From Actinomycetota bacterium (GTDB lineage: Bacteria; Actinomycetota; CALGFH01), in NCBI GenBank assembly GCA_035535495.1, contig DATLQA010000233.1, positions 10,734-74,733 on the forward strand: DNA of 64,000 nt. The letters are read 5' to 3'. The notes beneath the pieces were generated by a model. It was not told the origin of the DNA. It worked only from the letters and a program-made list of their open reading frames with translations, and searched no databases. Shown here piece after piece: positions 11,416-27,374 of the stretch. The translations under genes and the position numbers were made by a program. Positions within the stretch are counted from its first letter, which is position 1. Every line of letters begins with the position of its first letter.

Positions 11416-12222
11416 CTACTCCTGGGGGTCGTCGGTGTGTCTGGCCACCACGTAGACCTCGGCCGGCTGATGCATGGCGTCGGTCAGCGCGCGGTGGGCG
11501 AGCAGGATCCGCCGCGCCGAGTCCTGCGTCTCCGCCAGCCGGTCGGCCACCGTCTTGAGCACGTGGACGAGGTTGTGGGCGAACGCCGGGTCGTGTGCCT
11601 CCCCGGCCGGTCGGCCGCGTTCGTGGTGCTCGAGGCCGCGGCCGAGCTTGGTGAGCGCCTGGCCGATGGCGTCGGCGAGGTCGGGATGCACGGTCGGCTC
11701 GTCAGCGCGCAGCCAGGCCGGCGGGTCCGGGCGGGTCGCCGGGTTGCCGCCGGAATCCTCCACCTGGAAACCCGCCCGCCGGCTCAGGTAGGCGAGCAGC
11801 GAGAGGTCGTAGAGCCGGACCAGGGCCGGGTCGCGCCAGGCGTCAGCGGCCAGCACGGCGTAGGAGGCAGGGTTGGCCACCGACGCCACCAGCCGGCCGC
11901 CGGGAGCGAGCACGCGGCCGACGCCGGCCAGCAGCCGCAGGGCCTCTGGTGCCTGCAGCCGGTCGAGCAGGCGGCCGCAGAACACCGCGCGGTACGGGCC
12001 GGGCGGCGGCTCGGCGTCCAGGTGACCGAACGCCCGCGCCGCCTCCTTGCCGGCCGGCCCTGTCCTGATCCCGCTGGCCTCGACCCCGTCGGCGGCCAGC
12101 AGCTCGACCAGCTCCTGCTGGTCGGGACCGAGCGCGAGCACCGGGCCACGGCCGCGCAGCAGCGGCAGGTAGTGCCGCAGGCGGTCGCTCGCTGGCACGG
12201 CCGGCGGCAGCGCGAGGCTCAC
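11416..12222 (-). CDS. Class I methyltransferase-fold protein with a degenerate SAM-binding motif I. It is a paralogue of the methyltransferase at 24250-25101.
   Basis: Shares NPASYAVL..WRDP..VRLYD and a C-terminal HDP..H.L.HVLK...DRL.ETQ region with the paralogue. It has VLALGPDQQ where the paralogue has VVDLGCGRG. Confidence 0.7.
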   Translation of the reverse strand: MSLALPPAVPASDRLRHYLPLLRGRGPVLALGPDQQELVELLAADGVEASGIRTGPAGKEAARAFGHLDAEPPPGPYRAVFCGRLLDRLQAPEALRLLAGVGRVLAPGGRLVASVANPASYAVLAADAWRDPALVRLYDLSLLAYLSRRAGFQVEDSGGNPATRPDPPAWLRADEPTVHPDLADAIGQALTKLGRGLEHHERGRPAGEAHDPAFAHNLVHVLKTVADRLAETQDSARRILLAHRALTDAMHQPAEVYVVARHTDDPQE

Positions 12223-12246
12223 GGGCGTGTCCTGTCCGAGGTCGTG

Positions 12247-12900
12247 CTACTGCCAGTGCTCGATGGTCCTGACCGGCTTGGCCGGGACGCCCGCGACGAG
12301 GGTGGAGGGGGGGACGTCGCGGGTGACGACCGACCCGGCGGCAACGACGGCGCCGTCACCGATGGTCACCCCCTTGAGCACGAGCGCGTTGGTCCCGACC
12401 CAGACACGGTCGCCGATCACGATCGGCGCGGTGTGGGGCTGTGGCAGCCCGTCCACGTAGACGGCGTGGAAGTCGGTGTCCAGGATCTGCACGTTCCAGG
12501 AGATGTTGCAACCCGAACCAATGGTCACGCCGCTGGCGACCAGGATCTTGGTGAAGCCGTTGACCATCGTCTGGTGGCCGATCTCGAGCTGGCCGGCGTC
12601 GACCACGATCCGGGAGCCGCGGTGCAGGTTGACCTGCCCGTCGACCACGAACTGGGCGCCGGGGCGGATCCGGATCACGGTCTCGTCCCTGACGGTGGTC
12701 AGGCCGAAGCTGCCGATGCCGATGCGCAGGTGCCCGTTGTTGCGGAACACCAGCCGGCTGGGGTCGTCGATCACGGTGGCGGACCCGATCGACACCGGCA
12801 GGCGGTGGCGCAGCTCGTAGCGGAGCCGCCCCCGCCAGGCGGCCACGGGCGACACCTCCTGCTCCCGCCAAAGCTGCCGGTCGATCGCCTCTCGGAACAT
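12247..12900 (-). CDS. Hexapeptide-repeat (left-handed beta-helix) O-acetyltransferase, of the WbbJ / maltose O-acetyltransferase type
   Basis: Repeated [LIV]G-x4 hexapeptides and a C-terminal VGTNALVLKGVTIGDGAVVAAGSVVTRDVP. Start ATG (revcomp at 12898-12900) with an AAAGAGGAG ribosome-binding site. Confidence 0.8.
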   Translation of the reverse strand: MFREAIDRQLWREQEVSPVAAWRGRLRYELRHRLPVSIGSATVIDDPSRLVFRNNGHLRIGIGSFGLTTVRDETVIRIRPGAQFVVDGQVNLHRGSRIVVDAGQLEIGHQTMVNGFTKILVASGVTIGSGCNISWNVQILDTDFHAVYVDGLPQPHTAPIVIGDRVWVGTNALVLKGVTIGDGAVVAAGSVVTRDVPPSTLVAGVPAKPVRTIEHWQ

Positions 12901-13095
12901 TCCTCGCTCGCTCCTCTTTCGATGGTCCCGAGGGTCGACGCAGCGGAGCGGCGACCCCCGGCGACAAGATCCCCGGGACCTTCTCACTTCCGCGCCCTGT
13001 AGGACAAAGCGCCGCGAAGCCCCGGGCCCGGCCGGTGTCCACAGCCTTCCCATTCGTCGGGGTCGGCACCTGGAAGCACGTATACTCCCCGCCTC

Positions 13096-15171
13096 ATGGC
13101 GGTCGGAGAGGTTCGTGACATCGACGCCGTGCCGGGCACGACCGGCGAGGCCCAAGCGGAACGCAGGGAGGCGCCCGCGCCCCTGTACGCGGCCGAGGTC
13201 GCCGTCGGCGGGGCCGCGCTCGCGCTCGCCCTGCTCGCCTGGGCCGGCCTCGCGCTCGCCCACGCCCGCCACTACAGCCTCGCCGCCGCCGCCGGCCTCA
13301 CCCTGGTGGCGCTGGCCGTGGTCGTCCTGCTCGCCCGGGCCGGCGCGTCACGGCGTCCCGGTGGCCGCCCGCGGCTGGCGCTCGACCCGCCCGGGCTGGT
13401 CATGGTGGGCGTGCTCGCGCTGATCACCGCGGTCCTGCTCTTCCCCGGCTTCCCCTACGGCGTCGGCGACAAGGACCCTGGCGGCTACGTGTCGCAGGGC
13501 ATCCTCATGGCCCGCACCGGCGACTGGGCGATGAACGACCCGGTGCTCGACAAGGCCCGCATCCCCAGGGTCGCGCTCGCCTCGCCCGGCGCGCGGCTGC
13601 CCGGCCAGTGGATCGAGCACGCCCAGGTCCCGCGCCGCACCATCCCGCAGTTCTACCACCTCTGGTCCGCCGCTCTGGCCAGCGCGTTCGCCGCCGGCGG
13701 CTACACCGGCCTGGCGAACCTCAACCCGCTCTGCGGGGTGCTCGCGGCCTGCCTCGCCGCCCTCGCCGTCCGCAGGGTGTTCGGGCTGGTCGCCGGCTCG
13801 CTGGCCGGCCTGCTGCTGGCCGCCAACATGCTCGAGGTCTGGCAGGCCAAGTACCTGACCAGTGAGGTGTTCACCCAGGTCCTGGTGCTCGGGTCGATCC
13901 TCGGGGTGGTGCTCGCCCTGCGGACCGGGTGGCGCCTGCCCGCCGGCGTGGCCGGGCTGCTGCTCGGGCTCGGCTTCCTCGCCAGGGCCGACGGCCTGGT
14001 CCTGATCCTGATCGCGGTGGGGATCGGCTGCGTGCTGATCGCCACCGGCCGTTTCGACGCCCGCGCCGGCTGGTTCGCCGCCGGCCTCACGCTCACCCTG
14101 CCCCACGGCTTCCTGCAGGCCTACCACTTCGCCAGGCTCTACACCATCTCGGTGAAGCTGCCGGGGGCGACCACGGTGCTCGTGGCCATGGCGGTGCCGC
14201 TCGCCCTGGCGCTCGCGCTGCGCCGCTTCGCCCGGCCGCTGGGGGAGTGGGTGGCCCGCCTGATCGCCGAGCCGCGCGTCCAGCTCCTGGCCGGCGCGGC
14301 CATCGTCGGCCTGGCCGTGCTGCTGCTGGCGGTCGGGTTCCTGCGCCCAAGGCTCTTCGGGATCGACTACTTCAACTACAACGGCCGGGTCATCCGCAGC
14401 TACGACGAGCAGGCCCTCCGCCGCCTGTCCTGGTTCTTCACCCTGCCCGGGTTCGCGCTGATGGTGGCCGGGCTGGCCTACCTCGCCCTGCGCCGCTGGT
14501 CGGCGGCCGCCTGGGCGCTGGTCCTTCCCGGGTTGCTGCTGTTCCCGCTGTACGCCTACGAGGCGCAGAACTCGAGCCGGCTGATGTGGTGGAACCGCCG
14601 CTTCGTGCCGGTGGTGGTGCCGGCGGTGATCATCCTGATCGCGGTGGCCCTGGCCGTCGCCGTGGCCTGGACGGGACGCTGGCGCTGGCCCGTGCGCCTG
14701 GCCGGGCTGGCCGCCACCGGCGCGCTGCTGGCGGTGTTCCTCGGCCAGTCCCTGCCGCTCCGCCACCACCACGAGTTCGCCGGGTCGTTCGAGATCAGCC
14801 AGCGCGTCAGCCGCCTCGCCGGCGACCGCCAGGGCGTGTACCTGTGGCAGTCCCCGGGCGGGCGGCCGGTCTCGGCGACCTCGCTGTTCGCCTCGCCGTT
14901 GTGGCTGCAGGAGGGCGAGATCAGCGCGCTGCTGCCGAGGCGGCCCGACCCCGGCTACGTGCGCTCGTTCGTGCGCGGGTTCCCCGGGCAGCCGGTGTTC
15001 GTGGTGAGCGCGGGCGGCCGGGCCCTCGCCGGCTACGAGCGCGTCGGCCTCCGCCCGGTCGACCGGGTCCGCGCGACCCTGCCGTTCTGGGCCGAGAGCG
15101 ACACCAGCCGGCCGTCCAGGGCCGGCGCGGTCCCGGTCGACTTCACCGTCTGGCGGGTCGCCGGCACGTAG
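13096..15171 (+). CDS. GT-C-fold polytopic membrane glycosyltransferase (putative; probably uses a polyprenol-phosphate-sugar donor). Paralogue 1, 691 aa.
   Basis: About 14 TM helices. The first extracytoplasmic loop carries FPGFPYGVGDKDPGGYV. Conserved MWWNRRFVP and DYFNYNGRVIRSYDEQ blocks are shared with the paralogue at 25299-27374. Confidence 0.7.
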   Translation: MAVGEVRDIDAVPGTTGEAQAERREAPAPLYAAEVAVGGAALALALLAWAGLALAHARHYSLAAAAGLTLVALAVVVLLARAGASRRPGGRPRLALDPPGLVMVGVLALITAVLLFPGFPYGVGDKDPGGYVSQGILMARTGDWAMNDPVLDKARIPRVALASPGARLPGQWIEHAQVPRRTIPQFYHLWSAALASAFAAGGYTGLANLNPLCGVLAACLAALAVRRVFGLVAGSLAGLLLAANMLEVWQAKYLTSEVFTQVLVLGSILGVVLALRTGWRLPAGVAGLLLGLGFLARADGLVLILIAVGIGCVLIATGRFDARAGWFAAGLTLTLPHGFLQAYHFARLYTISVKLPGATTVLVAMAVPLALALALRRFARPLGEWVARLIAEPRVQLLAGAAIVGLAVLLLAVGFLRPRLFGIDYFNYNGRVIRSYDEQALRRLSWFFTLPGFALMVAGLAYLALRRWSAAAWALVLPGLLLFPLYAYEAQNSSRLMWWNRRFVPVVVPAVIILIAVALAVAVAWTGRWRWPVRLAGLAATGALLAVFLGQSLPLRHHHEFAGSFEISQRVSRLAGDRQGVYLWQSPGGRPVSATSLFASPLWLQEGEISALLPRRPDPGYVRSFVRGFPGQPVFVVSAGGRALAGYERVGLRPVDRVRATLPFWAESDTSRPSRAGAVPVDFTVWRVAGT

Positions 15172-15200
15172 CCTGCCCGGCGGACGGTGGCGCCACCGCG

Positions 15201-15548
15201 CTAGTGCCCGGCGCGGGTGCAGGCGTCCCTGGCGCGGGTGTAGCTCGGGCCGTCGACCACGCCGTGCGCGGCGAGCCGGGCGGCCTCCGCGCACGCCGGG
15301 CTCTCGACCGGACGGGGCGGGGTCGGGTCGTCGGCGAAGTACCTGACGGCGAGCTGCGCGAAGATCCAGAACAGCGCGCCGACCATGAGCACGCTGACGA
15401 TCCGCGGCCGGGCCACCTTGGTGCCCGCAGCCTCGTGCGCCCACAGCGGCAGCCGCCGCTTGGCGTGATCCCATTGCGGCCCCCCCGGCCGGAGGATCAG
15501 GACCAGCAGCAGGACGATCGCGATGAAGCCGAGGGTCCCAGAGTCCAT
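15201..15548 (-). CDS. Small two-TM membrane protein (hypothetical)
   Basis: 115-aa ORF with two hydrophobic helices. Convergent with the GT-C gene and divergent from the SpoIID gene. Confidence 0.35.
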   Translation of the reverse strand: MDSGTLGFIAIVLLLVLILRPGGPQWDHAKRRLPLWAHEAAGTKVARPRIVSVLMVGALFWIFAQLAVRYFADDPTPPRPVESPACAEAARLAAHGVVDGPSYTRARDACTRAGH

Positions 15549-15820
15549 GGTTCAGGCTCGCGCCAGGTTCGCCTGATGTCAACCAGTTCGCGCGGTTCGT
15601 GAGCGCTGTCGGCCGTGGCCGGGGGGAGCGGCTCGGCGCCTCGACTCCGACCGCACCGGCCGCCGGGCGGAGCGAGTTCAACCGCCTCAAGACCGGCCCC
15701 TGACCGCCGGCCGGAGCCGGCATCCCCGGCCCCGGCCTGAGACGCGGTGTTCAAGTCACCCCTTCCGGACGCCGACCCTCCAGCTTGTTCACGACCAAGC
15801 TGTCGGGGAGGTCCGGTTCC

Positions 15821-17215
15821 ATGCCCCGCCGTTCGCGCTGGCCTGCCCACATCCTGCTGCTGGCGACCGTCGCCGCCCTGCTGGGCGGGCCCACCGCGGT
15901 CAGGCCCGCCGCGCTCGCCGCTGACCCGTCCGCATCCGATCCGTTCGCCCCGGCGCCGGGCCGGCGGCCGGCCGCCCAGGCACCGGCACGGGCGCCGGCC
16001 GCGGCGCCGGCAGCCTTCCGCATCAGCGGCGGCGGCTACGGCCACGGGGTCGGGATGGGCCAGTACGGCGCCTACGGCATGGCGCTGCGCGGCCGGTCCG
16101 CCGCCGCGATCGTCGGCTTCTACTACGGTGGCGCGGCGGCGCGGAGGGTGGCGCTGCCGGCCGCCATCCGGGTCGGCGTCCTGCAGGCGCCCCGCGACCC
16201 CAGCACCGGCGGGCGGCTGACCAGGGTCCTGGTCCGCGGCCTGCGCCTCCCCGGCCACCGCTCCACCGGCACGATCGCCGCCGGCGGGATCGGCAAGCGG
16301 CACCAGGCCATGGCGAAGGGCCTGCCAGCCAACGTCACCTACGCCGTCCGGCCCGACCGCGGCGGGGTCTCGGTGTTCGCCGGGTCCAAGCGGGTGTTCG
16401 GGCCGACCTTGGCTGGCACCGGGGTCCGCATCCGCTACCAGGAGGGCATGCGCCTGCCGGCCCTGCTGTCGATGCCGCAGGCCGGTCGGACGCTGCGCTG
16501 GGGCCGGCTGGAGGTCAGCCTGGTCCGCGAGCGGAGCGCCTTCCGGCTCCGCGCGGTCGTGGTGATGGCGTTCAACACCTACCTCCGCGGTCTGGCCGAG
16601 ATGCCGAGCTCATGGCCGGCCAAGGCGCTCCAGGCACAGGCCATCGCCGGGCGCAGCTACGCCCTGGCCACGGTCCGCAAGGCCGGCCAGCACCGCGCCA
16701 GGTCCCGCTGGGACGGCTGCGACTGCGGCGTCTACGCCAGCGTCCGCGACCAGAACTGGATCGGCTGGTCCAAGGAGGCCGGCCCGTCCGGCGGCCGCTG
16801 GGTGGCGGCGGTGCGGGCCACCGGCTCGCTGGCGGTGGTCTGGCGGGGCCGGCTGGTGCAGGCGTTCTACTCGTCCTCGTCCGGCGGCCACACCGCCGCG
16901 GCCACCACCTGGGGCGGGCCGAGCCTGCCCTGGCTGCCCGCCCGCGCCGACCCGGACGACGCCGTCCGCGGCCACAACCCGAACCACCGCTGGACCGTCG
17001 TCCGTTCGGCCGCGAACGTCTCGGCCGCCCTCCGCCGCTACCACGTCGGCACGGTCGTCGGCCTCCGGGTGAGCCTGGCCGACGGCTCCGGACGCGCCCG
17101 CTCCGTCCAGGTCCGCGGGACGGCCCGGAGCGTGACCCTCGCCGGCGGCACCTTCCGCAGCCTGCTCCGGCTCAAGTCCACCAGATTCCGGATCGCCCCC
17201 GTGGCCACCGGCTGA
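15821..17215 (+). CDS. SpoIID/LytB domain protein (peptidoglycan hydrolase / amidase enhancer family)
   Basis: Signal peptide plus the SpoIID signature GYGHGVGMGQYGAYGMA. The start is taken at the internal ATG before the signal peptide. Confidence 0.8.
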   Translation: MPRRSRWPAHILLLATVAALLGGPTAVRPAALAADPSASDPFAPAPGRRPAAQAPARAPAAAPAAFRISGGGYGHGVGMGQYGAYGMALRGRSAAAIVGFYYGGAAARRVALPAAIRVGVLQAPRDPSTGGRLTRVLVRGLRLPGHRSTGTIAAGGIGKRHQAMAKGLPANVTYAVRPDRGGVSVFAGSKRVFGPTLAGTGVRIRYQEGMRLPALLSMPQAGRTLRWGRLEVSLVRERSAFRLRAVVVMAFNTYLRGLAEMPSSWPAKALQAQAIAGRSYALATVRKAGQHRARSRWDGCDCGVYASVRDQNWIGWSKEAGPSGGRWVAAVRATGSLAVVWRGRLVQAFYSSSSGGHTAAATTWGGPSLPWLPARADPDDAVRGHNPNHRWTVVRSAANVSAALRRYHVGTVVGLRVSLADGSGRARSVQVRGTARSVTLAGGTFRSLLRLKSTRFRIAPVATG

Positions 17216-17267
17216 CCCTACCGCTCTGGTCCACCGGCCGCCCGCACCGACATGGAGGTCCTGCCCG

Positions 17268-18785
17268 TTGCCCCGGTCACCGCTCACGCTGCTCCGCCGC
17301 CTCGCTACGGCCGGCCTCGCGTTGTCACTCGCGGTCGCGATCGTGGCCGACCTCGGCCCGCCGCGGCCGTCCGCCCCCCGGCCCGGTCCCGGCACCGTCA
17401 AGGACGTGCCCCTGTCGTTCGCCACCGGGTCGGTCGCCGGCCGCCTCGGCGGCGTCGAGCCGGCCCGCCTTCAGGCCACCGCCGGCCAGCGCGGCAGCTG
17501 GACCTCCGCGCCGGTCCCGCTCAACGGCGCCCGCATGGTCGGCCTCTCCTGGCGCAACACGCCGCACGGGCCCTGGACCGTGATCGACGGTGCCGGCGTG
17601 TGGCTGCGGACCAGCACCGCGAGCGGATGGTCGGGCTGGAGCGCGGCGGAGCCGGCCGACGACGGCCCCGACCCTGGCAGCGCCGAGGACCACCAGCAGC
17701 GGGTCTTCTCCGACGCGGTCTGGCTGCCTGCCGACACCAACGCGGTGCAGGTCAGGGTGGACCTGCCCGGGTACCACACCGCCAGCGTGGAACGCCTCAA
17801 CGCCCACCTGGTCTCCCCTGACCCGTCCCCGCTCGTGCCAGACCAGCCGCCACGGGGCGCGGCGGTCGCGGCGACCGCCAAGCCCGCGATCATCTCGCGC
17901 GCCCGCTGGGGTGCTGACGAGCGCCTGCGCGGCGGCCCGCCCAGCTACGCCGACACCGTGAAGGCCGCGTTCGTCCACCACACCGCGCAGAGCAACCGCT
18001 ACAGCAAGCGCGAGAGCGCCGCCCTGGTCAGGGCCGACTACCTCTACCACGTGCGCACCAGGGGCTGGAACGACATCGGCTACAACTTCCTCATCGACCG
18101 CTTCGGCCAGGTCTTCGAGGGCCGCGCCGGCGGGGTCGACCGTCCGGTGATCGGGGCGTGCACGGCCGGGTTCAACACCCGCACCAGCTGCGTGGCGCTG
18201 CTGGGCACGTTCAGCACCAGCAGGCCGCCGGCGACGAGCATGGCGGCGCTGCGTCGGCTGCTCGCCTGGAAGCTCGACCTCACCCACGTCGACCCGGCCT
18301 ACACCACCGTGCTGACCAGCGCCGGCGGGTCCACCAGCCGCTACCGCCGCGGCACCAGGGTGCGCCTGCGGACCATCAGCGGGCACCGCGACACCTCGTT
18401 CACCAGCTGCCCGGGGGCCAGGGTCTACTCCAGCATCACCGGCCTCCGGGTGGCGGTCGCCGCCCTCGGCGGGCCGAAGATCTACGGCGGCGCGACCAGC
18501 GCGGCGACTGTCAACCCTGGCACCACCCGGGTCGGGCTCCCGCTCAGGTTCAACCGGACGGTGCGCTGGTGGGTCAAGGTCGCCGCGGCCGACGGGCGCG
18601 TCATGCGGCGCTGGGCCGGCATCAGCCGCGCCACCCGGATCGTCTGGGACGGCCGCGACGCCCACGGCCAGGCCGCCGTCGCCGGCCGCGCCACCTTCAC
18701 CGCCACCGCCATGGTAGGTGGCCGGCGCGCCCGGCCCCTGACCGCCTCGGTGCTGGTCGGGGGGGCGACCACGACCCAGGAGTAG
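17268..18785 (+). CDS. Secreted N-acetylmuramoyl-L-alanine amidase (Amidase_2 / PGRP domain) with an N-terminal extension
   Basis: Signal peptide. Amidase_2 core: ISRARWGADE, FVHHTA, GWNDIGYNFLIDRFGQVFEGR, CTAGFN. Confidence 0.8.
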   Translation: MPRSPLTLLRRLATAGLALSLAVAIVADLGPPRPSAPRPGPGTVKDVPLSFATGSVAGRLGGVEPARLQATAGQRGSWTSAPVPLNGARMVGLSWRNTPHGPWTVIDGAGVWLRTSTASGWSGWSAAEPADDGPDPGSAEDHQQRVFSDAVWLPADTNAVQVRVDLPGYHTASVERLNAHLVSPDPSPLVPDQPPRGAAVAATAKPAIISRARWGADERLRGGPPSYADTVKAAFVHHTAQSNRYSKRESAALVRADYLYHVRTRGWNDIGYNFLIDRFGQVFEGRAGGVDRPVIGACTAGFNTRTSCVALLGTFSTSRPPATSMAALRRLLAWKLDLTHVDPAYTTVLTSAGGSTSRYRRGTRVRLRTISGHRDTSFTSCPGARVYSSITGLRVAVAALGGPKIYGGATSAATVNPGTTRVGLPLRFNRTVRWWVKVAAADGRVMRRWAGISRATRIVWDGRDAHGQAAVAGRATFTATAMVGGRRARPLTASVLVGGATTTQE

Positions 18786-18809
18786 ACGGCCAGGTGAGCG
18801 CCCCGCCCG

Positions 18810-19703
18810 TCACGACGCCGGCTTGACCGCTTCCCAGGTGAGGAACTGGTAGCTGGGGAAGACCCCGTCCCGCTGCGCCAGCTGGTCGTCGGCGACCACC
18901 ACCAGGTCCTCGGCCTTGGCCGCGGCGACCAGGGCGGCATGGTCGAACTCGGGGAACTCGAAGAAGCGGTCCCAGTGGGCGTCGCCCGCGACCACGCGGC
19001 GGCGGAAGTCCTCGGTGCACAGCACCACCGCCTGGAAGCCGTGCCGGCGCAGCCGTTCGGTCAGATCCATGCCGAAGCGCCAGAAGACCGGGGTGTTGTC
19101 GCCGTGGAACTCCGGCTCCGGCGGCGGCGCCGTGGTCGCCTGCCCGACCGGCACCTGCAGCAGCATGCGGCCGCCGGGGCTGAGCACCCGGTAGATCTCG
19201 GACAGGGCGGCCTCGGTGTCGGGCACGTGCTCCAGCACGTGCGCGGTGAGCAGCACGTCGATCGAGTCGTCGGGCAGGTCGAGGCGTTGCAGGTCGAGCT
19301 TGACGCTCGCCTTGTGCGCCCGCTGGTCGTAGTCGCTGGCCAGGTAGTGCACCCGGCGCGCCATCGTGTCCCGGTAGCCGGCGCCAAGGCGCGGGCTGGT
19401 CTCCAGCACCCGCAGCCGGCGCTCAAGCGGCACGCGCTGGTACAGGCACAGGTACATGAAGCGGTCGCGGCCGACCGCCTGGCAGTTCGGGCACTGGGCG
19501 GCCTCGGAATGCGGCGCGCCGGGGAACTGCGGTCCGCGCCAGTCGCAGAGGATGCACCAGGCGCCCTCGGCGGGGATGTCCTGTGCCCTGATCGGTGCCC
19601 ATGGCCGCAGCCGCGGGCCGTCGCCGCGCTGGCCGCCCAGCGCGTGCCGGGCCGAGCGGGCCAGCTCCCTGGTCTTGTTCCTGAGCGCGGTGGCGTACGA
19701 CAT
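18810..19703 (-). CDS. SAM-dependent methyltransferase (Methyltransf_11) with an N-terminal Cys4 zinc-ribbon
   Basis: CILCDW...CPNC ribbon. Motif II DVLLTAHVLEHV. ATG with a CAGGAG ribosome-binding site. Confidence 0.8.
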   Translation of the reverse strand: MSYATALRNKTRELARSARHALGGQRGDGPRLRPWAPIRAQDIPAEGAWCILCDWRGPQFPGAPHSEAAQCPNCQAVGRDRFMYLCLYQRVPLERRLRVLETSPRLGAGYRDTMARRVHYLASDYDQRAHKASVKLDLQRLDLPDDSIDVLLTAHVLEHVPDTEAALSEIYRVLSPGGRMLLQVPVGQATTAPPPEPEFHGDNTPVFWRFGMDLTERLRRHGFQAVVLCTEDFRRRVVAGDAHWDRFFEFPEFDHAALVAAAKAEDLVVVADDQLAQRDGVFPSYQFLTWEAVKPAS

Positions 19704-19757: not shown

Positions 19758-20669
19758 TCAGTCGTCGCCCGTCCGCCTGACCACCAGGTCGCCGAGCAGC
19801 GCGATGGCGGCGATGTTGATGCCGGCCAGGCCGATCAGCACGGTGGAGCCCGCCACCCGGAACGGGTGCAGGATCAGGTCGGAGATGAGCTTCACGAAGG
19901 TGCCGCCCATCAGGGTCAGCGCCACCGGCATGAGCACGCGCAGCGGGTTGAAGTACATCACCATGCGCAGGACCTGGATGATGTAGTTGTAGGCGTCCTT
20001 GAACGGGTGGAACTTCGAGCGTCCGGCGCGCTTGAAGTAGTCGATCGGGACGTACTTGATCTGGTGCCCGTTGGACAGGAACGCCAGCGTGATGGTGGTC
20101 ACGCAGGAGAACCCTGGTGGCAGCAGGCGCAGGTAGGGCTTGGCCACCTCGCGCTTGAAGGCGCGCAGCCCCGAGTTCAGGTCCGGGATCTCGGTGTTGG
20201 TGAGGTAGGAGGCGAGCCGGCGGATGAGCCACTTGGCCGGCACGCGGAAGAACTTGTAGGTGCCCGCCTCGGTCTTGCGCGCCCCGACCACCTGGTCGTA
20301 GTTCTCGTCGAGCTCGCGCACCAGGTCGGGGATGAGCTCGTTGGGGTAGGTCATGTCCGCGTCGGTCCAGACCACCACGCGGCCGCGGGCCTCGTGGGTG
20401 CCGATGCGGCGGGCGGTGCCCGAGCCCTGGTTGCGCGGGAACAGGATGGTGCGGATGCCCTGGATGGAGGAGAGGACCTCGCGGGTGCCGTCGGTGGAGC
20501 CGTCGTCAACGCAGATCAGCTCGTAGCTCATGCCGGCCTGGTCGAGCGCGGCACGGATGCGCTTGATCTCCTGCTCGACATGGTCGCGCTCGTTGTAGCA
20601 GGGCAGCACCACCGAGACCTCGGGGACGGCCTCGACGGGCAGGGGGGAAGGAGCCGGTGCGGTGGACAC
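19758..20669 (-). CDS. GT2 polyprenol-phosphate glycosyltransferase (GtrB / Ppm1 / DPM1-like), which makes a lipid-linked monosaccharide donor
   Basis: VSVVLPCYNE, VDDGSTDGT and DADM motifs, with two C-terminal TM helices. The start is set at a GTG (revcomp at 20667-20669) with an AGGAG ribosome-binding site. A longer ORF would leave no divergent promoter space. Confidence 0.8.
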   Translation of the reverse strand: MSTAPAPSPLPVEAVPEVSVVLPCYNERDHVEQEIKRIRAALDQAGMSYELICVDDGSTDGTREVLSSIQGIRTILFPRNQGSGTARRIGTHEARGRVVVWTDADMTYPNELIPDLVRELDENYDQVVGARKTEAGTYKFFRVPAKWLIRRLASYLTNTEIPDLNSGLRAFKREVAKPYLRLLPPGFSCVTTITLAFLSNGHQIKYVPIDYFKRAGRSKFHPFKDAYNYIIQVLRMVMYFNPLRVLMPVALTLMGGTFVKLISDLILHPFRVAGSTVLIGLAGINIAAIALLGDLVVRRTGDD

Positions 20670-20764
20670 GGGACTGCACTCCTGACGACGATCGGCGGGT
20701 CTGGCGAGCTCGGACGGCGAGGGCCGGCGGCGTGGCGGGCCCAAGGTCCCGAGAACGGTCTAGG

Positions 20765-21727: not shown

Positions 21728-21751
21728 CCAGCTGGCACGGCGGACGGGATC

Positions 21752-22315
21752 ATGGCCGACACCGCCTTCACCACGCTGACCTCCGACCGGCTGGTGCTGC
21801 GCCGGTTCCGGCCGGAGGACCTGGACGCGTTCGTCGCCTACCGCTCCGATCCCGAGGTCGCCCGCTACCAGGGCTGGGAGGCGCCGTATTCCCGCGCCGA
21901 GGCGACCAGGTTCCTCGCCGACCTTCAGGCCACCCACCCGGACACGCCCGACGTGTGGTACCAGATCGCGGTCGCGCTGCGGCAGACGGACCAGCTGATC
22001 GGCGACTGCGCCGCCCACGTCGAACCCGACGACCCGCGGCAGGCCGAGATCGGCTTCACCATCGCCCCGGCCCACCAGGGCCACGGCTACGCCACCGAGG
22101 CGGTGCGCCGGCTCCTCGACTACCTGCTCGTCGAGCGGGGCAAGCACCGCGTCCACGCGAGCTGCGACGACCGCAACACCCGCTCGGCGGCGCTGCTGGA
22201 ACGGGTCGGGATGCGCCGCGAGGGCCACCTGCTGGAGAGCACCTGGGCCAAGGGCGAGTGGACCAGCGACCTGCTGTTCGCCGTCCTGCGCCGCGACTGG
22301 CCGCCCGGAGGCTGA
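21752..22315 (+). CDS. GNAT family N-acetyltransferase (RimJ/RimL-like)
   Basis: 187 aa. GNAT motif A region QGHGYATEAVRRLLDY. Confidence 0.8.
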   Translation: MADTAFTTLTSDRLVLRRFRPEDLDAFVAYRSDPEVARYQGWEAPYSRAEATRFLADLQATHPDTPDVWYQIAVALRQTDQLIGDCAAHVEPDDPRQAEIGFTIAPAHQGHGYATEAVRRLLDYLLVERGKHRVHASCDDRNTRSAALLERVGMRREGHLLESTWAKGEWTSDLLFAVLRRDWPPGG

Positions 22316-22346
22316 CCTGCAGCCGGGGCTCGAAATCCGCCACCGG

Positions 22347-22646
22347 TTGCTGCGGACCAGGGCCGAGACGGGCACGCCCGTCCAGGCCCTGGTCCGCAGC
22401 ACCGGCGACGCCAAGAGCCTGCTGGTCCGCTCTGCCACCGGCTACTGGATCCGCTTCCCAGTCGGCGACCTGGACCGCCTGCTGCTGGCCACCCGAGTCG
22501 GCGGGGAGCCGCTGGCCGCCAGGCACGGCTTCCCGCTCCGCCTGGTCGCCCCTGGCCGGCGCGGCTTCTGGTGGGTGAAGTGGGTCGACCGCGTCGAGCT
22601 GCACGACACGCCGTGGTGGTGGCAACCACCGTTCCCGGTGACCTAG
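22347..22646 (+). pseudogene. C-terminal fragment of a sulfite-oxidase-family molybdopterin oxidoreductase (MsrP/YedY-like). The N-terminal about 130-150 aa are missing.
   Basis: EPLAARHGFPLRLVAPGRRGFWWVKWVDRVEL matches the C-terminal end of the Moco domain. No upstream coding sequence is left between it and the GNAT gene. Confidence 0.5.
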
Positions 22647-24199
22647 GAGCCGGTCCCGGCCAGGCCGGCGCGGGTGGCGATCTCATGCCAGCGCCGACGG
22701 AAGGCGTCCTCGGAGAAGGCCTGGGCGCGCTCGACCGCGGCCGCGCCGAGGCGGCGGCAGTGGTCGGGGTCGGCGGCCAGCTCGCGGGTGCGGGCCTCCA
22801 GCTCTTCGAGCGTCGACCAGCGGTAGCCGTCGACCCCCTGGCGGACGATCTCGCGCTGGCCGGCCTGGTCGATCACCACCGGGACGCAGCCGGCCGCCAT
22901 CGCCTCGACGGTGGTCATGCCGAAGTGCTCGAACACCCACGGCTGCTGCTCGGGGTCCTCGCCGAGGCCGGTCGCCGCCCAGAAGATCGAGCTGGTGGCG
23001 AACAGCTCGTCGACCTTGGCCCTTGGCGCGTTGGGGTGGATCTCCACCGGCAGGCCGGCGGCGGCCTCGCGCAGCGCGGCCAGGTAGGGGCGCTGGGACG
23101 GCTCGCAGCCGCCGACCACGTGCAGCGTCCAGGAGTCCAGGCCGCCGTTGCGGACCATCTGGCCGAAGGCCTGCACCTGTTCCAGCTGCTTCTTGTTGTG
23201 GCCGAGGCCGGGGGCGAAGAAGCGTCCGACCGTGAGGATCTTGCGGTCCTTGCTGCCGGGTTGGAGCTCGTGCACGCGGATCGGCGGGAACAGGACCTCG
23301 CTGTCGACCCCCCAGAGCCGCTTGATCCACGAGCGGGTGTACTCCGAGTTGGCCATCACCACCTGGTAGTGGTCGAGGAAGGACAGGTCGGTGGGGTCGC
23401 GCAGCAGCCAGGGGAACCGCTCGGCGACCCGCTGGCGCAGGTCCCGCTGGGACCCGGCCATGCGCAGGCGGCTCACCGCCACGCCCAGGTCGCGGTCGTC
23501 GCCGCCGCCCGGCTTGAACGTCTCGGTGCGCAGCACCAGCTCGGCCGGCTGCGGCGAGGCCGGCAGGCGCACCTCGTGCCCCCGGAACCGGTCCGGCTGG
23601 GCGACCAGCCGTGCCAGCTCGCGGCCGTCCTCGTCGCGGAAGGTCAGCTCGGCCGGTCCGGGCGCACCGGGCCGGCCGAGGTCGAAGGTGAGCACCCGCT
23701 CCCCCTCGCTGCCCGGGACCTGCAGGAGCGAGCGGTCGCTGGTCCACGCCCACGAGCGGCGCCGCCCGCCCTCAGGGGGAAACCAGCCCAGCCCGTAGCC
23801 GATGTCCGGCCGTACCTGGCGGACGTACGGGCCGGCCAGGCGGACCAGGCGCCGCCGCCACGCCGCCATGTCGTGGTCGAACGGGGTGGGGAACCAGCAC
23901 AGGTAGAGGCTGTGGGCCGCCCGCGCCTTGATGCGGCTCATGTAGGAGGCGTTGACGAACAGGTCGTACTCGGACGACACCCGGGCCAGGTCGGTCTCGC
24001 CCCGGTCGGAGACCACCCGCAGCGCCACCTTGGCCAGGTCCAGTCCGAGATGGTCGGCGAGGACGTCCTTGCCGACGTCCTCGTGGCCGATGAGGTCGAC
24101 CTCGTGGCCGTCCTCGGCGAGGACCTGGGCGAGCATGCTGGAGTGGCGCTCACCGCCACCCATCGAATGCAGGAACCGGTTGTAGACGGCGGCCTTCAA
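22643..24199 (-). CDS. GT4 family glycosyltransferase (large form, with an inserted domain)
   Basis: C-terminal GT4 signature (FEHFGMTTVEAMAAGCVPVV) and an N-terminal Rossmann half. Proposed TTG start with an AGGGAG ribosome-binding site; an upstream ATG at 24298 is the alternative. Confidence 0.7.
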   Translation of the reverse strand: MKAAVYNRFLHSMGGGERHSSMLAQVLAEDGHEVDLIGHEDVGKDVLADHLGLDLAKVALRVVSDRGETDLARVSSEYDLFVNASYMSRIKARAAHSLYLCWFPTPFDHDMAAWRRRLVRLAGPYVRQVRPDIGYGLGWFPPEGGRRRSWAWTSDRSLLQVPGSEGERVLTFDLGRPGAPGPAELTFRDEDGRELARLVAQPDRFRGHEVRLPASPQPAELVLRTETFKPGGGDDRDLGVAVSRLRMAGSQRDLRQRVAERFPWLLRDPTDLSFLDHYQVVMANSEYTRSWIKRLWGVDSEVLFPPIRVHELQPGSKDRKILTVGRFFAPGLGHNKKQLEQVQAFGQMVRNGGLDSWTLHVVGGCEPSQRPYLAALREAAAGLPVEIHPNAPRAKVDELFATSSIFWAATGLGEDPEQQPWVFEHFGMTTVEAMAAGCVPVVIDQAGQREIVRQGVDGYRWSTLEELEARTRELAADPDHCRRLGAAAVERAQAFSEDAFRRRWHEIATRAGLAGTGS

Positions 24200-24249
24200 G
24201 CGTCGGACACTCCCTGTGGCGTGGTGGGCGTCGGCGCGGGCCGCGCCGG

Positions 24250-25101
24250 TCAGGCGTGCGCGCGCACGAAGATCTCGTTCGGCTGGTACATCCCCCATAC
24301 TAGGTTGTCGTGCGCGATCCGGAGCTCCCGCACCGCCTCCTGCGTCTCCCGCAGCCGGTCGCAGAGCACCTTGGCGACGTGGGCGAGCTGGTAGGCCCAC
24401 GAAGGGTCGTGCGACTCCCGCCAGCGGCCGCGGCCGTCGTGATGCTGCAGCGCCATGGCGACCTGGCTGGTGGCGGCGTCGAGGACGTCGTCAAGTCCCG
24501 GGTGGACGATCGCCTCCGGCGCCAGGAACCCCGGCGGCGGCCCCGGATGGTTCTGCGGGTTCGGCCCTGACTCCTCGACCTCGAGGCCGGCCTCACGGCA
24601 GAGGAACTCCAGCAGCGGGGCGTCGTAGAAGCGCACGTGGGTCGGGTCCCGCCAGAAGTCGTGGGTGAGCACCGCGTAACAGGCCGGGTTGGGGGTGGCG
24701 GCCACGAACTTGCCGCCAGGCACCAGCACCTTGCGGACGCCGTCGAGCATGCGCACGACCTGCTCCGGCGTGAGGTGCTCGACGAAGTGGGCGCAGAAGA
24801 CCCCGCCGAACGGCCCTGGGGTCGGGTCGGCGTGCAGGTACTCGATGGCGTCGTCGAGGAGCACGTCGAGCCCGCGGCCGCGGGCCTGCTCCACCATGCC
24901 CTCGTCCGAGTCGACGCCGACGGCCTTGATGCCCGCGTCGTGCAGCATGGTGACGAAGTCGCCGCGGCCGCAGCCAAGGTCGACCACTGGCGCCGCCTGG
25001 TCGGCGAACATCGGCACGTAGAAGCTCTGCACGGCACGCGCGTGCTCGCCGTGGGGGTCGAAGTCCATGTAGGCGTAGTAGTCGCTTTCGAGTCGGGTCA
25101 T
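24250..25101 (-). CDS. Class I SAM-dependent methyltransferase with a C-terminal helical extension. Paralogue of 11416-12222.
   Basis: Intact motif I VVDLGCGRGDF, post-I acid VGVDSD, motif II FGGVFCAHFVEHL. Confidence 0.8.
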   Translation of the reverse strand: MTRLESDYYAYMDFDPHGEHARAVQSFYVPMFADQAAPVVDLGCGRGDFVTMLHDAGIKAVGVDSDEGMVEQARGRGLDVLLDDAIEYLHADPTPGPFGGVFCAHFVEHLTPEQVVRMLDGVRKVLVPGGKFVAATPNPACYAVLTHDFWRDPTHVRFYDAPLLEFLCREAGLEVEESGPNPQNHPGPPPGFLAPEAIVHPGLDDVLDAATSQVAMALQHHDGRGRWRESHDPSWAYQLAHVAKVLCDRLRETQEAVRELRIAHDNLVWGMYQPNEIFVRAHA

Positions 25102-25298
25102 GGTCGACCTCCTTGCGCCGCGACCACGCTGCCGCGGTGCCGCCTCCCCCCGTACGACATGGCGCCCAGGACCGAGGGCACCCGAATGCTACCGACCGGC
25201 GCGTCCGCAGGGCGACTCCTGGGCTCGCCGGCCGGCGCCTGGCCGGCTCCAAGCGGGCCGGGGCAGGACGCCGGTGGCCGGGTAGACTGCGGCGCGAC

Positions 25299-27374
25299 AT
25301 GCGGACCCGCTCCACCTCCCCGCCTGCCGCCGAGCCGGAGGCCCTGGATGCGGCCGCGCCGGCCGGCGCCGCGATCGAGCTGCGACCGGCCGAGGCGCTG
25401 TGGCTGGGCGGCACCGCCGTGATCGCCGCGGTCTGCTGGGCGTCCCTGGCCGCCGCGCACCTCGCTGTGCTCTCGGTCGGCTCGGTGCTCGGCCTGGCGG
25501 CGGTGATGCTCGCGGCGCTCGCCGTCCCCGTCTGGCTGTCCCTGCGGCGCGGAGCCCGCCGCCTGGTCCTCGGCGGCCGCCTCGGCTGGGTCGAGGTGGC
25601 GGCGCTGGCGGCCGGCGCCGGCCTGCTGCTCCTGCTCTACCTGCCCGGCTTCCCGTACGGCGTGGCCGACAAGGACCCCGGCGGGTACGTGCAGCACGGC
25701 TTCTCGATCGCCCGCACCGGCGACTTCCGCATCCACGACGAGGCCCTGGCCAAGCTGCCGGACATGACCCGGTACGGCGCCGGCATCCGCTTCCCCGGCA
25801 TCTGGATCAGCGACGCCGCCCGCGCCGAGGTGGTGCCGCAGTTCTACCACCTGTACCCGGCCACCCTCGGCTTCCTCGGCCGGCTCTCGGGCCAGACCGC
25901 CATGATGAGCCTGAACGCGCTGCTCGCGGTGGTGTCCGCCGCCGGGGTGTACCTGGTGGGGCGGCGACTGGCCGGGCCGGTCGCCGGGGCGGTGGCCGCC
26001 GCCGTGCTCGCCCTCGACATGGTCCAGGTCTGGCAGGCCAAGTACCCGACCACCGAGATCTCCACCAAGCTCTTCTTCGTGGTCACCATCCTCGGCCTGG
26101 TGGTCGCCGCCGAGACCCGCTGGTGGCCGCCGGCGGTGCTGGCCGGCGCGGCGCTCGGGGTCGCCTGGCTGGACCGGCCCGACACGCTGCTGCCGGTGCT
26201 GATCGCTCTCGGCGTGCTCGCCGCCGCGGTGGTGCTCGGGCGCTTCGGGCGGCTCCACGCCGCGTTCGCGCTCGGCCTGGCGGTGGTCGCCCCCCACGCC
26301 ATCTGGCAGGCGCTCGGCCCTGCCGGCAGGTACAGCCAGGCCGCCGGCGGCATCACCAGCGGCCGGCTCGCCCTGGCCGCCGCCGCGCTCGCCGCCGGCA
26401 CGGTGGTCGGCCGGGTGCTGTGGCGGGGGCCGCTCGGCCGGTGGATCGAGCGGTTGGCGGGCCGGCTGGTCGCCGACCCGCGCCGCCGCTTGGCGCTCAA
26501 GGCGCTGCTCCCGGCCGGCCTGGTCCTGCTCGCCCTGGTCGCGTGGTTCCGGCCGCAGCTCTTCGGCGCCGACTACTTCGACTACAACGGCCGCCTGATC
26601 CGCAGCTACGACGAGCAGAACCTGCGCCGCCTCGCCTGGTTCGTGACCGTGCCGGGGATCGCCGCCACCCTGGTCGGCTTCGCGGTGGTGGCGCTGCGCC
26701 GCTGGCGGGCGGCGGTCTGGATCGCGGTCGGGCCGGCGGTGGTGCTGCTCATCCTCTACCTCTACCAGGCGGTCAACTCGACCCGGCTGATGTGGTGGAG
26801 CCGGCGCTACGTGCCCAGCGGCCTGCTGGTGTTCGCACTGCTGATCGGGATCGCCTGCGCCGCGGCGTGGGCGTGGCGGGGGAGAGGACGACTGCTCGCG
26901 CTGGTCGCCGCCGTGGCGGTGGCCGGGGTGGTGGTGGGGACCGGGCTGGTGCAGAGCCTGCCGCTCGCCAGGCACCGGGAGTTCGGCGGGTCGTTCGCCG
27001 CCTCGGCCCGGATCGCCGACGCCGCGCACGGCCGCCAGGGGGTGTTCGTCTGGGGGCCGCGCCGCACCTACTACGACACCATGCCGCTGTTCGCCGCGCC
27101 GGTGTGGCTGCAACGCGACCAGCTCTCGGTGATCCTGCCGCCGAACGGCACCCGCGCCGACCTGGAGCGCATCCAACGTGCCTTCCCCGGCCAGCCGCTG
27201 TTCCTGGTCACCGGCTCGCTGGGCCTGCCGCCGACCCTCCGCCAGGCCGGCCTGCGCAAGGTCGACGGCTTCCGGGTGGCGATGCCGTTCTGGCAGGAGT
27301 CCGACACCCAGCGGCCCTCCCACAACGTCGGCGTCGGCGCCAGGATCGAGATCTGGTCGCTCGGCGGGCCATAG
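25299..27374 (+). CDS. GT-C-fold polytopic membrane glycosyltransferase (putative). Paralogue 2, 691 aa.
   Basis: LPGFPYGVADKDPGGYV, MWWSRRYVP and DYFDYNGRLIRSYDEQ blocks. With the ATG at 25299 the product length is the same as paralogue 1 (691 aa). Confidence 0.7.
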   Translation: MRTRSTSPPAAEPEALDAAAPAGAAIELRPAEALWLGGTAVIAAVCWASLAAAHLAVLSVGSVLGLAAVMLAALAVPVWLSLRRGARRLVLGGRLGWVEVAALAAGAGLLLLLYLPGFPYGVADKDPGGYVQHGFSIARTGDFRIHDEALAKLPDMTRYGAGIRFPGIWISDAARAEVVPQFYHLYPATLGFLGRLSGQTAMMSLNALLAVVSAAGVYLVGRRLAGPVAGAVAAAVLALDMVQVWQAKYPTTEISTKLFFVVTILGLVVAAETRWWPPAVLAGAALGVAWLDRPDTLLPVLIALGVLAAAVVLGRFGRLHAAFALGLAVVAPHAIWQALGPAGRYSQAAGGITSGRLALAAAALAAGTVVGRVLWRGPLGRWIERLAGRLVADPRRRLALKALLPAGLVLLALVAWFRPQLFGADYFDYNGRLIRSYDEQNLRRLAWFVTVPGIAATLVGFAVVALRRWRAAVWIAVGPAVVLLILYLYQAVNSTRLMWWSRRYVPSGLLVFALLIGIACAAAWAWRGRGRLLALVAAVAVAGVVVGTGLVQSLPLARHREFGGSFAASARIADAAHGRQGVFVWGPRRTYYDTMPLFAAPVWLQRDQLSVILPPNGTRADLERIQRAFPGQPLFLVTGSLGLPPTLRQAGLRKVDGFRVAMPFWQESDTQRPSHNVGVGARIEIWSLGGP

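Follow-up and report, generated by a model that had tools for sequence, protein, structure and literature searches.

What does a membrane glycosyltransferase do beside a methyltransferase gene, and why would one locus hold the arrangement twice? The question is raised by a 64,000-nucleotide stretch (the window; about 74% G+C) of contig DATLQA010000233.1 from an Actinomycetota bacterium (assembly GCA_035535495.1), in which two genes resembling S-adenosylmethionine (SAM)-dependent methyltransferase genes, MT1 and MT2, each lie divergently from a gene for a 691-amino-acid polytopic membrane protein, GTC1 and GTC2, respectively. A first-pass annotation of this DNA had proposed that the two pairs are copies of one duplicated module for glycan modification in the periplasm. 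Our analysis keeps the glycosyltransferases and parts them from the methyltransferases. At a probability of roughly 0.6, GTC1 and GTC2 are old paralogues in an uncharacterized GT-C family that add sugars to an exported wall polymer outside the membrane, and the methyltransferases are not their partners.

Two diverged gene pairs in one locus

Because of the high G+C content, genes were called across the window by codon-position GC, and the five open reading frames (ORFs) named in the first-pass annotation proved to be real coding frames, with third-position G+C (GC3) of 0.89 to 0.96. Pairwise comparison bore out two paralogous pairs in the same divergent arrangement. GTC1 and GTC2 are 43% identical over 580 amino acids (E 3e-124), and MT1 and MT2 are 42% identical over 255 amino acids (E 2e-65), the shared stretch HDP..H.L.HV.K...DRL.ETQ included. 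Since nucleotide identity is only 65.5% for the GT-C pair and 68% for the methyltransferase pair, we rejected an assembly duplication artifact as the source of the modules.

The GTC1-GTC2 alignment confirmed three long shared blocks, FPGFPYGV(G/A)DKDPGGYV, DYF(N/D)YNGR(V/L)IRSYDEQ, and MWW(N/S)RR(F/Y)VP. The outer loops are the most alike, with 79% identity in residues 422 to 449 and 53% in extracytoplasmic loop 1 (EL1), compared to 37% in the transmembrane (TM) core. Both proteins are 691 amino acids long as first annotated, but the equality hinges on the chosen ATG starts, and homologues range from about 640 to 730 amino acids. A TANNNT hexamer ends exactly 9 nucleotides upstream of both ATGs (TATACT for GTC1 and TAGACT for GTC2), a geometry that suggests leaderless transcripts and supports the chosen starts. 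Alignment of the two divergent intergenic regions revealed no common element, and only this TANNNT-N9-ATG geometry is shared.

A GT-C fold and a family signature

The AlphaFold2 model of GTC1 (pLDDT 83.7, pTM 0.88) contains about 15 TM helices, with an N-terminal hairpin ahead of what is canonically the first helix, and ends in an alpha/beta domain (about residues 556 to 691). In Foldseek searches with this model, the core superposed on known GT-C enzymes, as is characteristic of the GT-C superfamily. The top structural matches were the oligosaccharyltransferases (OSTs) AglB, STT3, and PglB; OST, ArnT, and ALG12 outscored PMT, and AftA, AftB, and AftD were also among the matches. Transporters appeared only at a Foldseek E of >0.1 with a TM-score of about 0.1, and a transporter fold for the 691-amino-acid proteins was rejected.

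We assessed conservation across 61 homologues from Actinomycetes, Acidimicrobiia, and Thermoleophilia. Residues D125, D127, E257, W498, R501, and R502 occur in all 61, and R297, D299, and R417 occur in 60. Around these, P117, G118, Y121, D125, D127, P128, G129, Y131, W498, R501, and R502 are 98 to 100% conserved. The shared blocks are genuine family signatures, and both GTC1 and GTC2 look catalytically competent. The invariant D125-[KR]-D127 (61/61) constitutes an acidic DxD-type motif in the first large extracytoplasmic loop, residues 116 to 188, which follows TM3. The N-terminal and 85-97 loops of GTC1 are basic; by the positive-inside rule and helix parity, the D-K-D loop, the 422-449 loop, the MWWxRR turn, and the C-terminal domain are all predicted to face outward.

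The first-pass annotation had not recognized the GT-C signature from any characterized family, and sequence searches agreed. A scan of GTC1 and GTC2 against NCBIfam gave nothing meaningful, and neither phmmer nor a 26-sequence profile matched any solved structure in the PDB, whether ArnT, another GT-C, or an OST. In Pfam, GTC2 matched PMT_2 (PF13231) marginally, at 34.4 bits against a gathering score of 26.1, and GTC1 had no match. PMT_2 was matched by 14 of 26 family members at an E of ≤0.01 and by 7 of 10 distant relatives at an E of ≤0.001, 6 of them above the 26.1-bit cutoff; for distant relatives of 820 to 1,019 amino acids, it was the sole match. The OST motif WWDxG is absent. The sole WW lies in MWWxRR (residues 497 to 502), between TM helices, and at the third position, where WWDxG has D, the family has N, T, S, V, or A. 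The homologues are nearly all metagenomic "hypothetical proteins," and a hidden Markov model scan of 1.84 billion representatives found 452 clusters at an E of ≤1e-30 and 1,802 at an E of ≤1e-10 (clustered at 50% identity). The fold model, the structural matches, and the family conservation together support the assignment of the 691-amino-acid proteins to the GT-C fold, within a family that has no characterized member.

Gene neighborhoods of the GT-C family

A motif-based scan of one genome per GTDB species yielded 69 related loci (individual loci are given L numbers). They come from Frankiaceae, Pseudonocardiales, other "Mycobacteriales" metagenome-assembled genomes (MAGs), cultured Pseudofrankia, Acidimicrobiia, and one Solirubrobacteraceae MAG; the same scan found no locus in Mycobacterium or Corynebacterium. 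We placed the window proteins on these loci by tblastn and counted as neighbors the genes within 10 kb of the GT-C gene in the 32 loci flanked by 8 kb or more on each side. The most frequent neighbors were Wzm of the ABC-2 glycan exporter and the glycosyltransferase GT2c (25 of 32 loci each), followed by Wzt (24/32) and a PplT-type membrane protein (19/32). GT2a, a GT2 glycosyltransferase, was present at ≥50% identity in 16 loci and as a more distant GT2a-like protein in 11, and the acetyltransferase AcT was found in 16 (in 11 of the 32 within 3 kb). An MT1/2-type methyltransferase gene was present in only 6 of 32. The methyltransferase and GT-C genes thus do not make up a conserved module.

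In the canonical arrangement, GT4b-GT4a-GT2c-[MT]-Wzt-Wzm is divergent from GT-C-[AcT]-GT2a-PplT, and GT2c and the GT4 genes are conserved with wzm-wzt beside the GT-C gene. GT2a has a median identity of 63% across 35 loci and directly adjoins the GT-C gene in L007, L043, L049, and L054. By these linkages, the GT-C family appears to be a regular component of a Wzm/Wzt-dependent cell wall glycopolymer locus in Actinomycetota, and gene context favors modification of the exported glycan by GT-C on the extracytoplasmic side.

Many related loci hold a single GT-C gene; L004, L046, and L073, like the window, have two paralogues. Orthologues of GTC2 were found in L057 (85% identity), L073 (72%), and L004 (58%). 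In a rough neighbor-joining tree, GTC2 and L004_7855 fall together outside the entire GTC1 clade of Actinomycetes. In the Pseudofrankia loci L045 and L068 and in L041, L062, and L065, tblastn matches the GT-C gene in two segments separated by a gap or frame change; some carriers, the only cultured ones among them, may have insertions or frameshifts there or carry the gene as a pseudogene.

Methyltransferases of the locus

MT2 has the features of a class I SAM-dependent methyltransferase, as judged from its sequence and model. Motif I (LGCGRG) and the acidic residue after strand 2 (GVDSD) are intact, Methyltransf_25 is matched at 1e-13, and the AlphaFold2 model (pLDDT 86) is seven-stranded. Its Foldseek neighbors are generic class I enzymes, namely, small-molecule and sugar O-/C-methyltransferases. 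The C-terminal helical extension that first drew attention to these proteins is shared by MT1 and MT2 through the HDP...DRL.ETQ stretch, but it is not unusual within its family, and it is not an appended domain. It is kept in more than 1,000 homologues at about 99% coverage, in a family with more than 1,200 members of full-length coverage, and in the MT2 model it comprises a linker, a short helix (residues 204 to 217), and a 38-residue helix (residues 234 to 271) inserted before the last beta strand.

In MT1, motif I reads LGPDQQ and GIRTG lacks the acidic residue after strand 2, so that neither the GxGxG motif nor the acidic residue of class I enzymes is present, and about 10 residues are deleted. 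The MT1 orthologue in L001 (8372-9196, minus strand) is likewise degenerate (LGPDHE), and the L073 homologue is intact. MT1 retains 29 of 60 conserved columns (48%) in its SAM-binding N-terminal half compared to 38 of 60 (63%) elsewhere, and when set against the L001 orthologue it has a dN/dS of 0.42, as opposed to 0.17 to 0.34 in neighboring genes. Both MT1 and this orthologue are nevertheless still open reading frames. MT1 is probably catalytically impaired, with SAM binding lost, and is probably either a recently inactivated enzyme (pseudoenzyme) or a protein kept for a noncatalytic role.

Neither MT1 nor MT2 has a signal peptide or TM segment, and methylation needs the cytoplasmic cofactor SAM. 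The proposal of a periplasmic glycan modification unit is thus supported for the GT-C proteins, whose gene context favors action outside the membrane, but not for the methyltransferases. Where GT-C loci carry an MT1/2-type gene, it usually lies after wzt, inside the divergent wzm-wzt-GT operon; the position after wzt recurs in L007, L009, L010, L013, L025, L034, L038, L041, L058, and L064. Contigs reached via MT2 homologues have the order [AcT]-MT-GT4a (516 to 518 amino acids)-Wzm-Wzt-GT2c-GT4, with no GT-C gene within 8 kb, and the MT2-to-GT4a order is found in L070 to L072 and in L011. On the 431-kb contig of L073, which has orthologues of both GTC1 (75%) and GTC2, the sole MT1/2-family gene sits with AcT beside the GTC1 orthologue, and the GTC2 orthologue faces an unrelated methyltransferase gene.

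The rough tree of the methyltransferases places MT1, with its L001 orthologue, on a long branch outside the MT2 clade. Module 1 therefore combines a canonical GT-C with an aberrant methyltransferase and module 2 the reverse, so that the pairing is local gene order rather than a conserved unit. These histories do not look like the recent duplication of a two-gene module.

MT2 sits with wzt and glycosyltransferase genes, and about 150 amino acids extend the C terminus of Wzt; MT2 may therefore cap the chain end. This setting weakly supports a role in cytoplasmic O-methylation of the backbone, perhaps at the nonreducing end as an export or termination signal. The Wzt extension (residues about 245 to 395) had no Pfam match, Wzt_C included, and no significant PDB sequence match, so we rejected its assignment to a known carbohydrate-binding module (CBM); it could be a novel module for binding the glycan terminus. 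We also considered MT2 as a member of the WbdD family and rejected this, as WbdD was absent from both the 44 PDB sequence matches and the top 50 Foldseek matches of MT2 and there is no likeness beyond the Rossmann core.

Candidate partners of the GT-C proteins

GT2a and the PplT-type protein are better-supported partners of the GT-C proteins than the methyltransferases. GT2a combines a GT-A domain with two C-terminal TM segments (residues 226 to 244 and 252 to 279), the architecture of the linked polyprenyl-phosphate glycosyltransferase in three-component glycosylation systems. Its best NCBIfam matches are AglJ, PgfS, ArnC, Dol-P-hexose transferase, and PpgS, and its PDB relatives are ArnC (6e-24), the Pyrococcus furiosus Dol-P-Man synthase (DPMS; 1e-20), and GtrB (6e-20). 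We predict GT2a to be a polyprenyl-phosphate glycosyltransferase and propose it as the synthase of the lipid-linked donor. Linkage to this ArnC/GtrB/DPMS-type enzyme points indirectly to the use of a polyprenyl-phosphate sugar by the GT-C proteins.

The PplT-type protein matches PF03706 at 55.3 bits (cutoff, 33.4), has seven TM-like segments, and is encoded after GT2a in many loci. PplT/UPF0104 domains are predicted lipid flippases, and fusion or linkage to glycosyltransferases is frequent among them (bioRxiv 10.1101/2022.03.11.483950); GpgF is an example (PMC12713373). The protein is a candidate flippase for the lipid-linked donor, although it is not of the GtrA, SMR, or MATE types used by characterized three-component systems.

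Proposed pathway and competing explanations

The following pathway is assembled from homology and linkage; its chemistry and the order of its steps are what we infer from them. A polyprenyl-pyrophosphate-linked backbone would be built in the cytoplasm by GT2b, GT2c, and GT4a to GT4d from dTDP-rhamnose and GDP-mannose, supplied by the products of the RmlA-like, RmlD, ManC, and PMM genes, and would be O-methylated and O-acetylated there by MT2, MT3, a further methyltransferase (g481), and AcT. Wzm/Wzt would export the polymer. GT2a would make a polyprenyl-phosphate monosaccharide, and the PplT-type protein would flip this sugar lipid across the membrane. At the outer face, GTC1 and GTC2 would place the sugar on the exported polymer through the D125-x-D127 loop, the 422-449 loop, and W498, R501, and R502 at the interface (probably in phosphate binding), most likely at different acceptor positions or with different anomers. 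The LCP (LytR-CpsA-Psr) ligase would finally join the product to peptidoglycan. In this reading, the methyltransferases are cytoplasmic proteins and not functional partners of the GT-C proteins, and their divergent adjacency to the GT-C genes here reflects how this locus happens to be ordered.

Several observations weigh against this pathway. The structural matches of GTC1 have TM-scores of just 0.33 to 0.46 and therefore hold at the superfamily level only, and because the best of them include OSTs with pyrophosphate-linked donors, the fold alone leaves the type of donor open. The window has two (perhaps three) GT-C-type genes to one clear polyprenyl-phosphate GT2, so that the pattern of one synthase per GT-C in the SCC polysaccharide of Streptococcus mutans is not reproduced. 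GT2a and PplT lie 5 to 12 kb from the GT-C genes in the window, and they are absent near the GT-C gene in about one-third of the loci, where they may be encoded elsewhere. The capping role of MT2 is drawn just from gene order and the unmatched Wzt extension, and MT2 has no similarity to WbdD.

We weighed four other explanations against old GT-C paralogues acting on an exported polymer. Each methyltransferase might form a dedicated, duplicated two-gene unit with its GT-C protein and methylate the lipid-linked donor or the added sugar, giving one methylated branch or cap per module. An MT1/2-family gene is indeed divergent from the GT-C gene in the window, L001, and L073, the pairs are similarly diverged (42% and 43%), and methylation of a polyprenyl-phosphate sugar before flipping would need no external SAM. 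This unit is nonetheless very unlikely, considering how seldom an MT1/2-type gene accompanies the GT-C gene and that it then usually belongs to the wzm-wzt-GT operon, that MT2 homologues occur with GT4a and wzm-wzt yet without GT-C, that an unrelated methyltransferase takes this place beside the GTC2 orthologue of L073, that MT1 has lost motif I, and that the trees of the two partners are mismatched. Alternatively, the GT-C proteins may prime or elongate a second glycan domain that is assembled outside the cell from polyprenyl-phosphate sugars, as Emb/Aft arabinosyltransferases and Mpt mannosyltransferases do, rather than add single side-chain residues. The ratio of several GT-C-type genes to one donor synthase, the matches to AftA, AftB, and AftD, the synteny of the locus with the mycobacterial rmlD-wbbL-manC wall region, and the presence of ManC and PMM, which would provide GDP-mannose to a Ppm-type synthase, are all consistent with this idea. 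We consider it unlikely, as extra domains associated with processivity are absent, the C-terminal domain is small and unlike those of Emb and AftD, and many loci manage with one GT-C.

The PMT_2 match might be taken to indicate PMT-type protein O-glycosyl (mannosyl) transferases that modify secreted proteins with polyprenyl-phosphate-mannose from GT2a. But PMT_2 is a broad ArnT/PMT-like model that GTC1 misses, no PMT-specific model or solved PMT sequence was matched, OST, ArnT, and ALG12 are structurally closer than PMT, and the GT-C genes are tightly linked to wzm-wzt and polysaccharide glycosyltransferase genes, often over a shared divergent promoter, leaving protein glycosylation highly doubtful. 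That AglB, STT3, and PglB are the best structural matches and that the GT-C gene lies right beside wzm-wzt could instead point to en bloc transfer of the whole exported polymer from its polyprenyl-pyrophosphate carrier to an acceptor, as by an OST or ligase. We give en bloc transfer hardly any weight, since WWDxG is absent and MWWxRR lies between TM helices rather than in the C-terminal domain, the locus already encodes an LCP ligase, and frequent pairing with the synthase of a monosaccharide-phosphate lipid is unexpected for such an enzyme.

Relation to characterized systems

Compared with characterized pathways, the proposed addition of sugars to an exported polymer by GTC1 and GTC2 has its closest worked example in S. 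mutans SCC, in which an ABC-exported rhamnan is glucosylated at different positions by the GT-C enzymes SccM and SccQ, each fed by its own undecaprenyl-phosphate-glucose (Und-P-Glc) synthase, with LCP attachment afterwards (PMC11754754). Like SCC (SccN/SccM and SccP/SccQ) and related streptococcal rhamnopolysaccharides, the locus as we read it would combine a cytoplasmic backbone, ABC export, a GT-A polyprenyl-phosphate synthase, two GT-C paralogues acting outside the membrane, and LCP attachment to peptidoglycan. Unlike SCC, it has one clear synthase for two GT-C genes and a PplT-type flippase candidate (the SCC flippase is not known), and its host is an actinomycetote; the likeness is drawn without an established sequence relationship.

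The combination of synthase, flippase, and GT-C would also follow the established logic of three-component extracytoplasmic glycosylation, as in GtrA/GtrB/Gtr, ArnC/ArnEF/ArnT, and Citrobacter ORF15/ORF14/ORF12, the last representing family GT136 (PMC11127046). It differs from these systems in that the flippase candidate is PplT/UPF0104 rather than GtrA/SMR or MATE and that the GT-C proteins have an extra N-terminal TM hairpin and signature motifs of their own.

In Mycobacterium tuberculosis, as summarized in the literature, Rv3779, PpgS (Rv3631), and Rv3632 add galactosamine to arabinogalactan (PMC3485146). By its described features, Rv3779 is likewise an actinobacterial GT-C that acts on a Wzm/Wzt-exported, LCP-attached wall polysaccharide with a polyprenyl-phosphate sugar from a GT2, and PpgS is among the NCBIfam matches of GT2a; the accessory membrane protein is small there (Rv3632) and PplT-type here. 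Rv3779 is presumably also a neighbor of rfbE/rfbD.

On the cytoplasmic side, WbdD of Escherichia coli O9a/O8 is a chain-terminating methyltransferase that works with the CBM of Wzt (PMC3482155). The long (38-residue) helix of MT2 and the extension of Wzt recall WbdD and its Wzt, but MT2 has no kinase domain, its helix is an insertion rather than a C-terminal coiled coil, and the extension matches no known Wzt CBM. The wzm-wzt-MT-GTs order in more than 10 related loci mirrors what we take to be the O9a order, wzm-wzt-wbdD-wbdA.

Gene map of the window

The locus reads as a wall glycopolymer gene cluster (Table 1). Its order begins with the LCP ligase, RmlA-like, and RmlD genes, MT1 and AcT divergent from GTC1, and the SpoIID and amidase genes, continues with MT3, GT2a, GT2b, a GNAT gene, GT4a and MT2 divergent from GTC2, and the 533-amino-acid membrane protein Mem533, and ends with Wzm, Wzt, GT2c, three GT4 genes, and ManC. 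GT2c and GT4b to GT4d are predicted cytoplasmic glycosyltransferases that would make the backbone, and the LCP ligase is expected to link the finished polymer to peptidoglycan. The first-pass assignment of AcT as a hexapeptide acetyltransferase holds by Pfam; its gene is transcribed before MT1 and divergently from GTC1. With MT1, MT2, MT3, and g481, the locus has four methyltransferase genes, a hint that the glycan is heavily O-methylated.

Table 1. Positions of the features of the locus within the window
Feature	Position	Strand	Remarks
g481, further class I methyltransferase unrelated to MT1/MT2	481-1122	+	
PplT/UPF0104 (LPG_synthase_TM) flippase-like membrane protein	1130-2152	-	PF03706, TIGR00374
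LytR-CpsA-Psr (LCP) ligase	3445-4854	+	PF03816 1e-40, LytR_C; conserved in L001 and L072
MT1, MT2 paralogue with degenerate SAM-binding motifs	11416-12222	-	Weak Methyltransf_23 match only
AcT, hexapeptide-repeat (LbH) acetyltransferase	12247-12900	-	Pfam Hexapep; NCBIfam WbbJ/WcaF/NeuD-type matches all below cutoff
-10-like hexamer TATACT	13081-13086	+	Ends 9 nucleotides 5' of GTC1 ATG; kept in L001
GTC1, 691-amino-acid GT-C fold glycosyltransferase (predicted)	13096-15171	+	
SpoIID-domain and Amidase_2 proteins between the two modules	15785-18785	+	Each with N-terminal TM/signal segment
MT3, third class I methyltransferase, unrelated to MT1/MT2	18810-19703	-	Pfam Methyltransf_11; in 8/32 loci
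GT2a, predicted polyprenyl-phosphate glycosyltransferase (ArnC/GtrB/DPMS type)	19758-20612	-	Start may be upstream, at 20744
GT4a, 518-amino-acid GT4 glycosyltransferase	22643-24199	-	Pfam Glycos_transf_1; directly downstream of MT2
MT2, class I SAM methyltransferase, motif LGCGRG intact	24250-25101	-	Pfam Methyltransf_25/23/11
-10-like hexamer TAGACT	25284-25289	+	Ends 9 nucleotides 5' of GTC2 ATG
GTC2, divergent GTC1 paralogue	25299-27374	+	Has every family-invariant residue
Mem533, polytopic membrane protein with soluble C-terminal part	27407-29008	-	At least 8 TM-like segments; FWLDEGW after TM1; weak DUF6077
Wzm, ABC-2 glycan exporter	29216-30076	+	Pfam ABC2_membrane; NCBIfam TagH and galactan Wzt/RfbE-type matches for the Wzm/Wzt pair
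Wzt, ABC-2 glycan exporter	30080-31267	+	Pfam ABC_tran; extended C terminus
GT2c, polymerase-like GT2	31264-32631	+	Pfam
GT4b	32636-33748	+	Pfam
GT4c	33856-34962	+	Pfam
GT4d	34959-36107	+	Pfam

We rejected Mem533 as a third member of the GT-C family, to which it has no profile similarity (hhalign probability, 0.1%). Its topology and FWLDEGW motif allow the guess that it is another candidate lipid-donor-dependent (GT-C-type) transferase, and it adjoins a GT2a-like gene in L003, L005, and L006. The g481 methyltransferase gene adjoins the GT2a or PplT gene in L002, L009, L010, L012, L013, and L042. The SpoIID and Amidase_2 genes keep their position in L001 and L073, and L072 has a single fused protein of 797 amino acids. 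A 524-amino-acid protein (6572-8146, minus strand) consists largely of a very long Glu/Asp/Ala-rich low-complexity stretch with one TM helix near the C terminus; it matched no family, and none of the related loci has a homologue. The ORF at 8808-10409 (plus strand) is probably overcalled, its N-terminal part being Arg/Ser-rich and resembling a wrong frame, and the likely gene within it (9642-10409) encodes a Pro-rich protein with one TM helix.

The region from 36146 to 58369 contains, in order, ManC, DUF3105, a permease, GNAT, FbiB/CofE, FbiA/CofD, anti-sigma/ECF (extracytoplasmic function) sigma, a 1,030-amino-acid GT2, DUF5719, PMM, PGI-like, PNP, histidine kinase, and SahH genes. This order recalls what we take to be the rmlD-wbbL-manC...fbiAB...manB...sahH region of the M. 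tuberculosis map (the mycobacterial wall/F420 region), with the glycopolymer locus presumably at the position of wbbL.

Implications for wall glycans of Actinomycetota

To our knowledge, beyond the mycolata and a few streptomycetes, next to nothing has been learned about the wall glycopolymers that uncultured soil Actinomycetota and Acidimicrobiia make. We suggest tentatively, at somewhat less than even odds, that GT-C, the ArnC-like GT2a, and PplT constitute an undescribed three-component system, in which the GT-C proteins would form a new CAZy family, PplT would be the first of its kind to flip polyprenyl-phosphate sugars, and the target would be a methylated, acetylated, LCP-attached wall polysaccharide common to Frankiaceae, Pseudonocardiales, other soil Actinomycetes, and Acidimicrobiia. 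Frankia chemotaxonomy has long relied on O-methyl sugars, and these might come from such a polymer. Frankia reportedly contains 2-O-methyl-D-mannose, a finding said to go back to Mort and colleagues in 1983 (listed in PMC3729583). No MT1/2 gene lies within reach in the locus of Frankia alni (L024), so the connection between this sugar and the locus stays a lead.

The general principle is known from streptococci, enterobacteria, and mycobacteria, so what is gained here is incremental and not conceptual, namely, a new, uncharacterized GT-C family inside a known kind of pathway. If our reading is true, the number of known GT-C families would grow by one, and the lipid-sugar flippases might gain a new class. 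The locus type is found in at least 69 species-level genomes and brings an unstudied GT-C family (about 450 to 1,800 clusters) together with ABC export and LCP attachment, and it therefore offers a concrete gene set for finding and engineering such a polymer.

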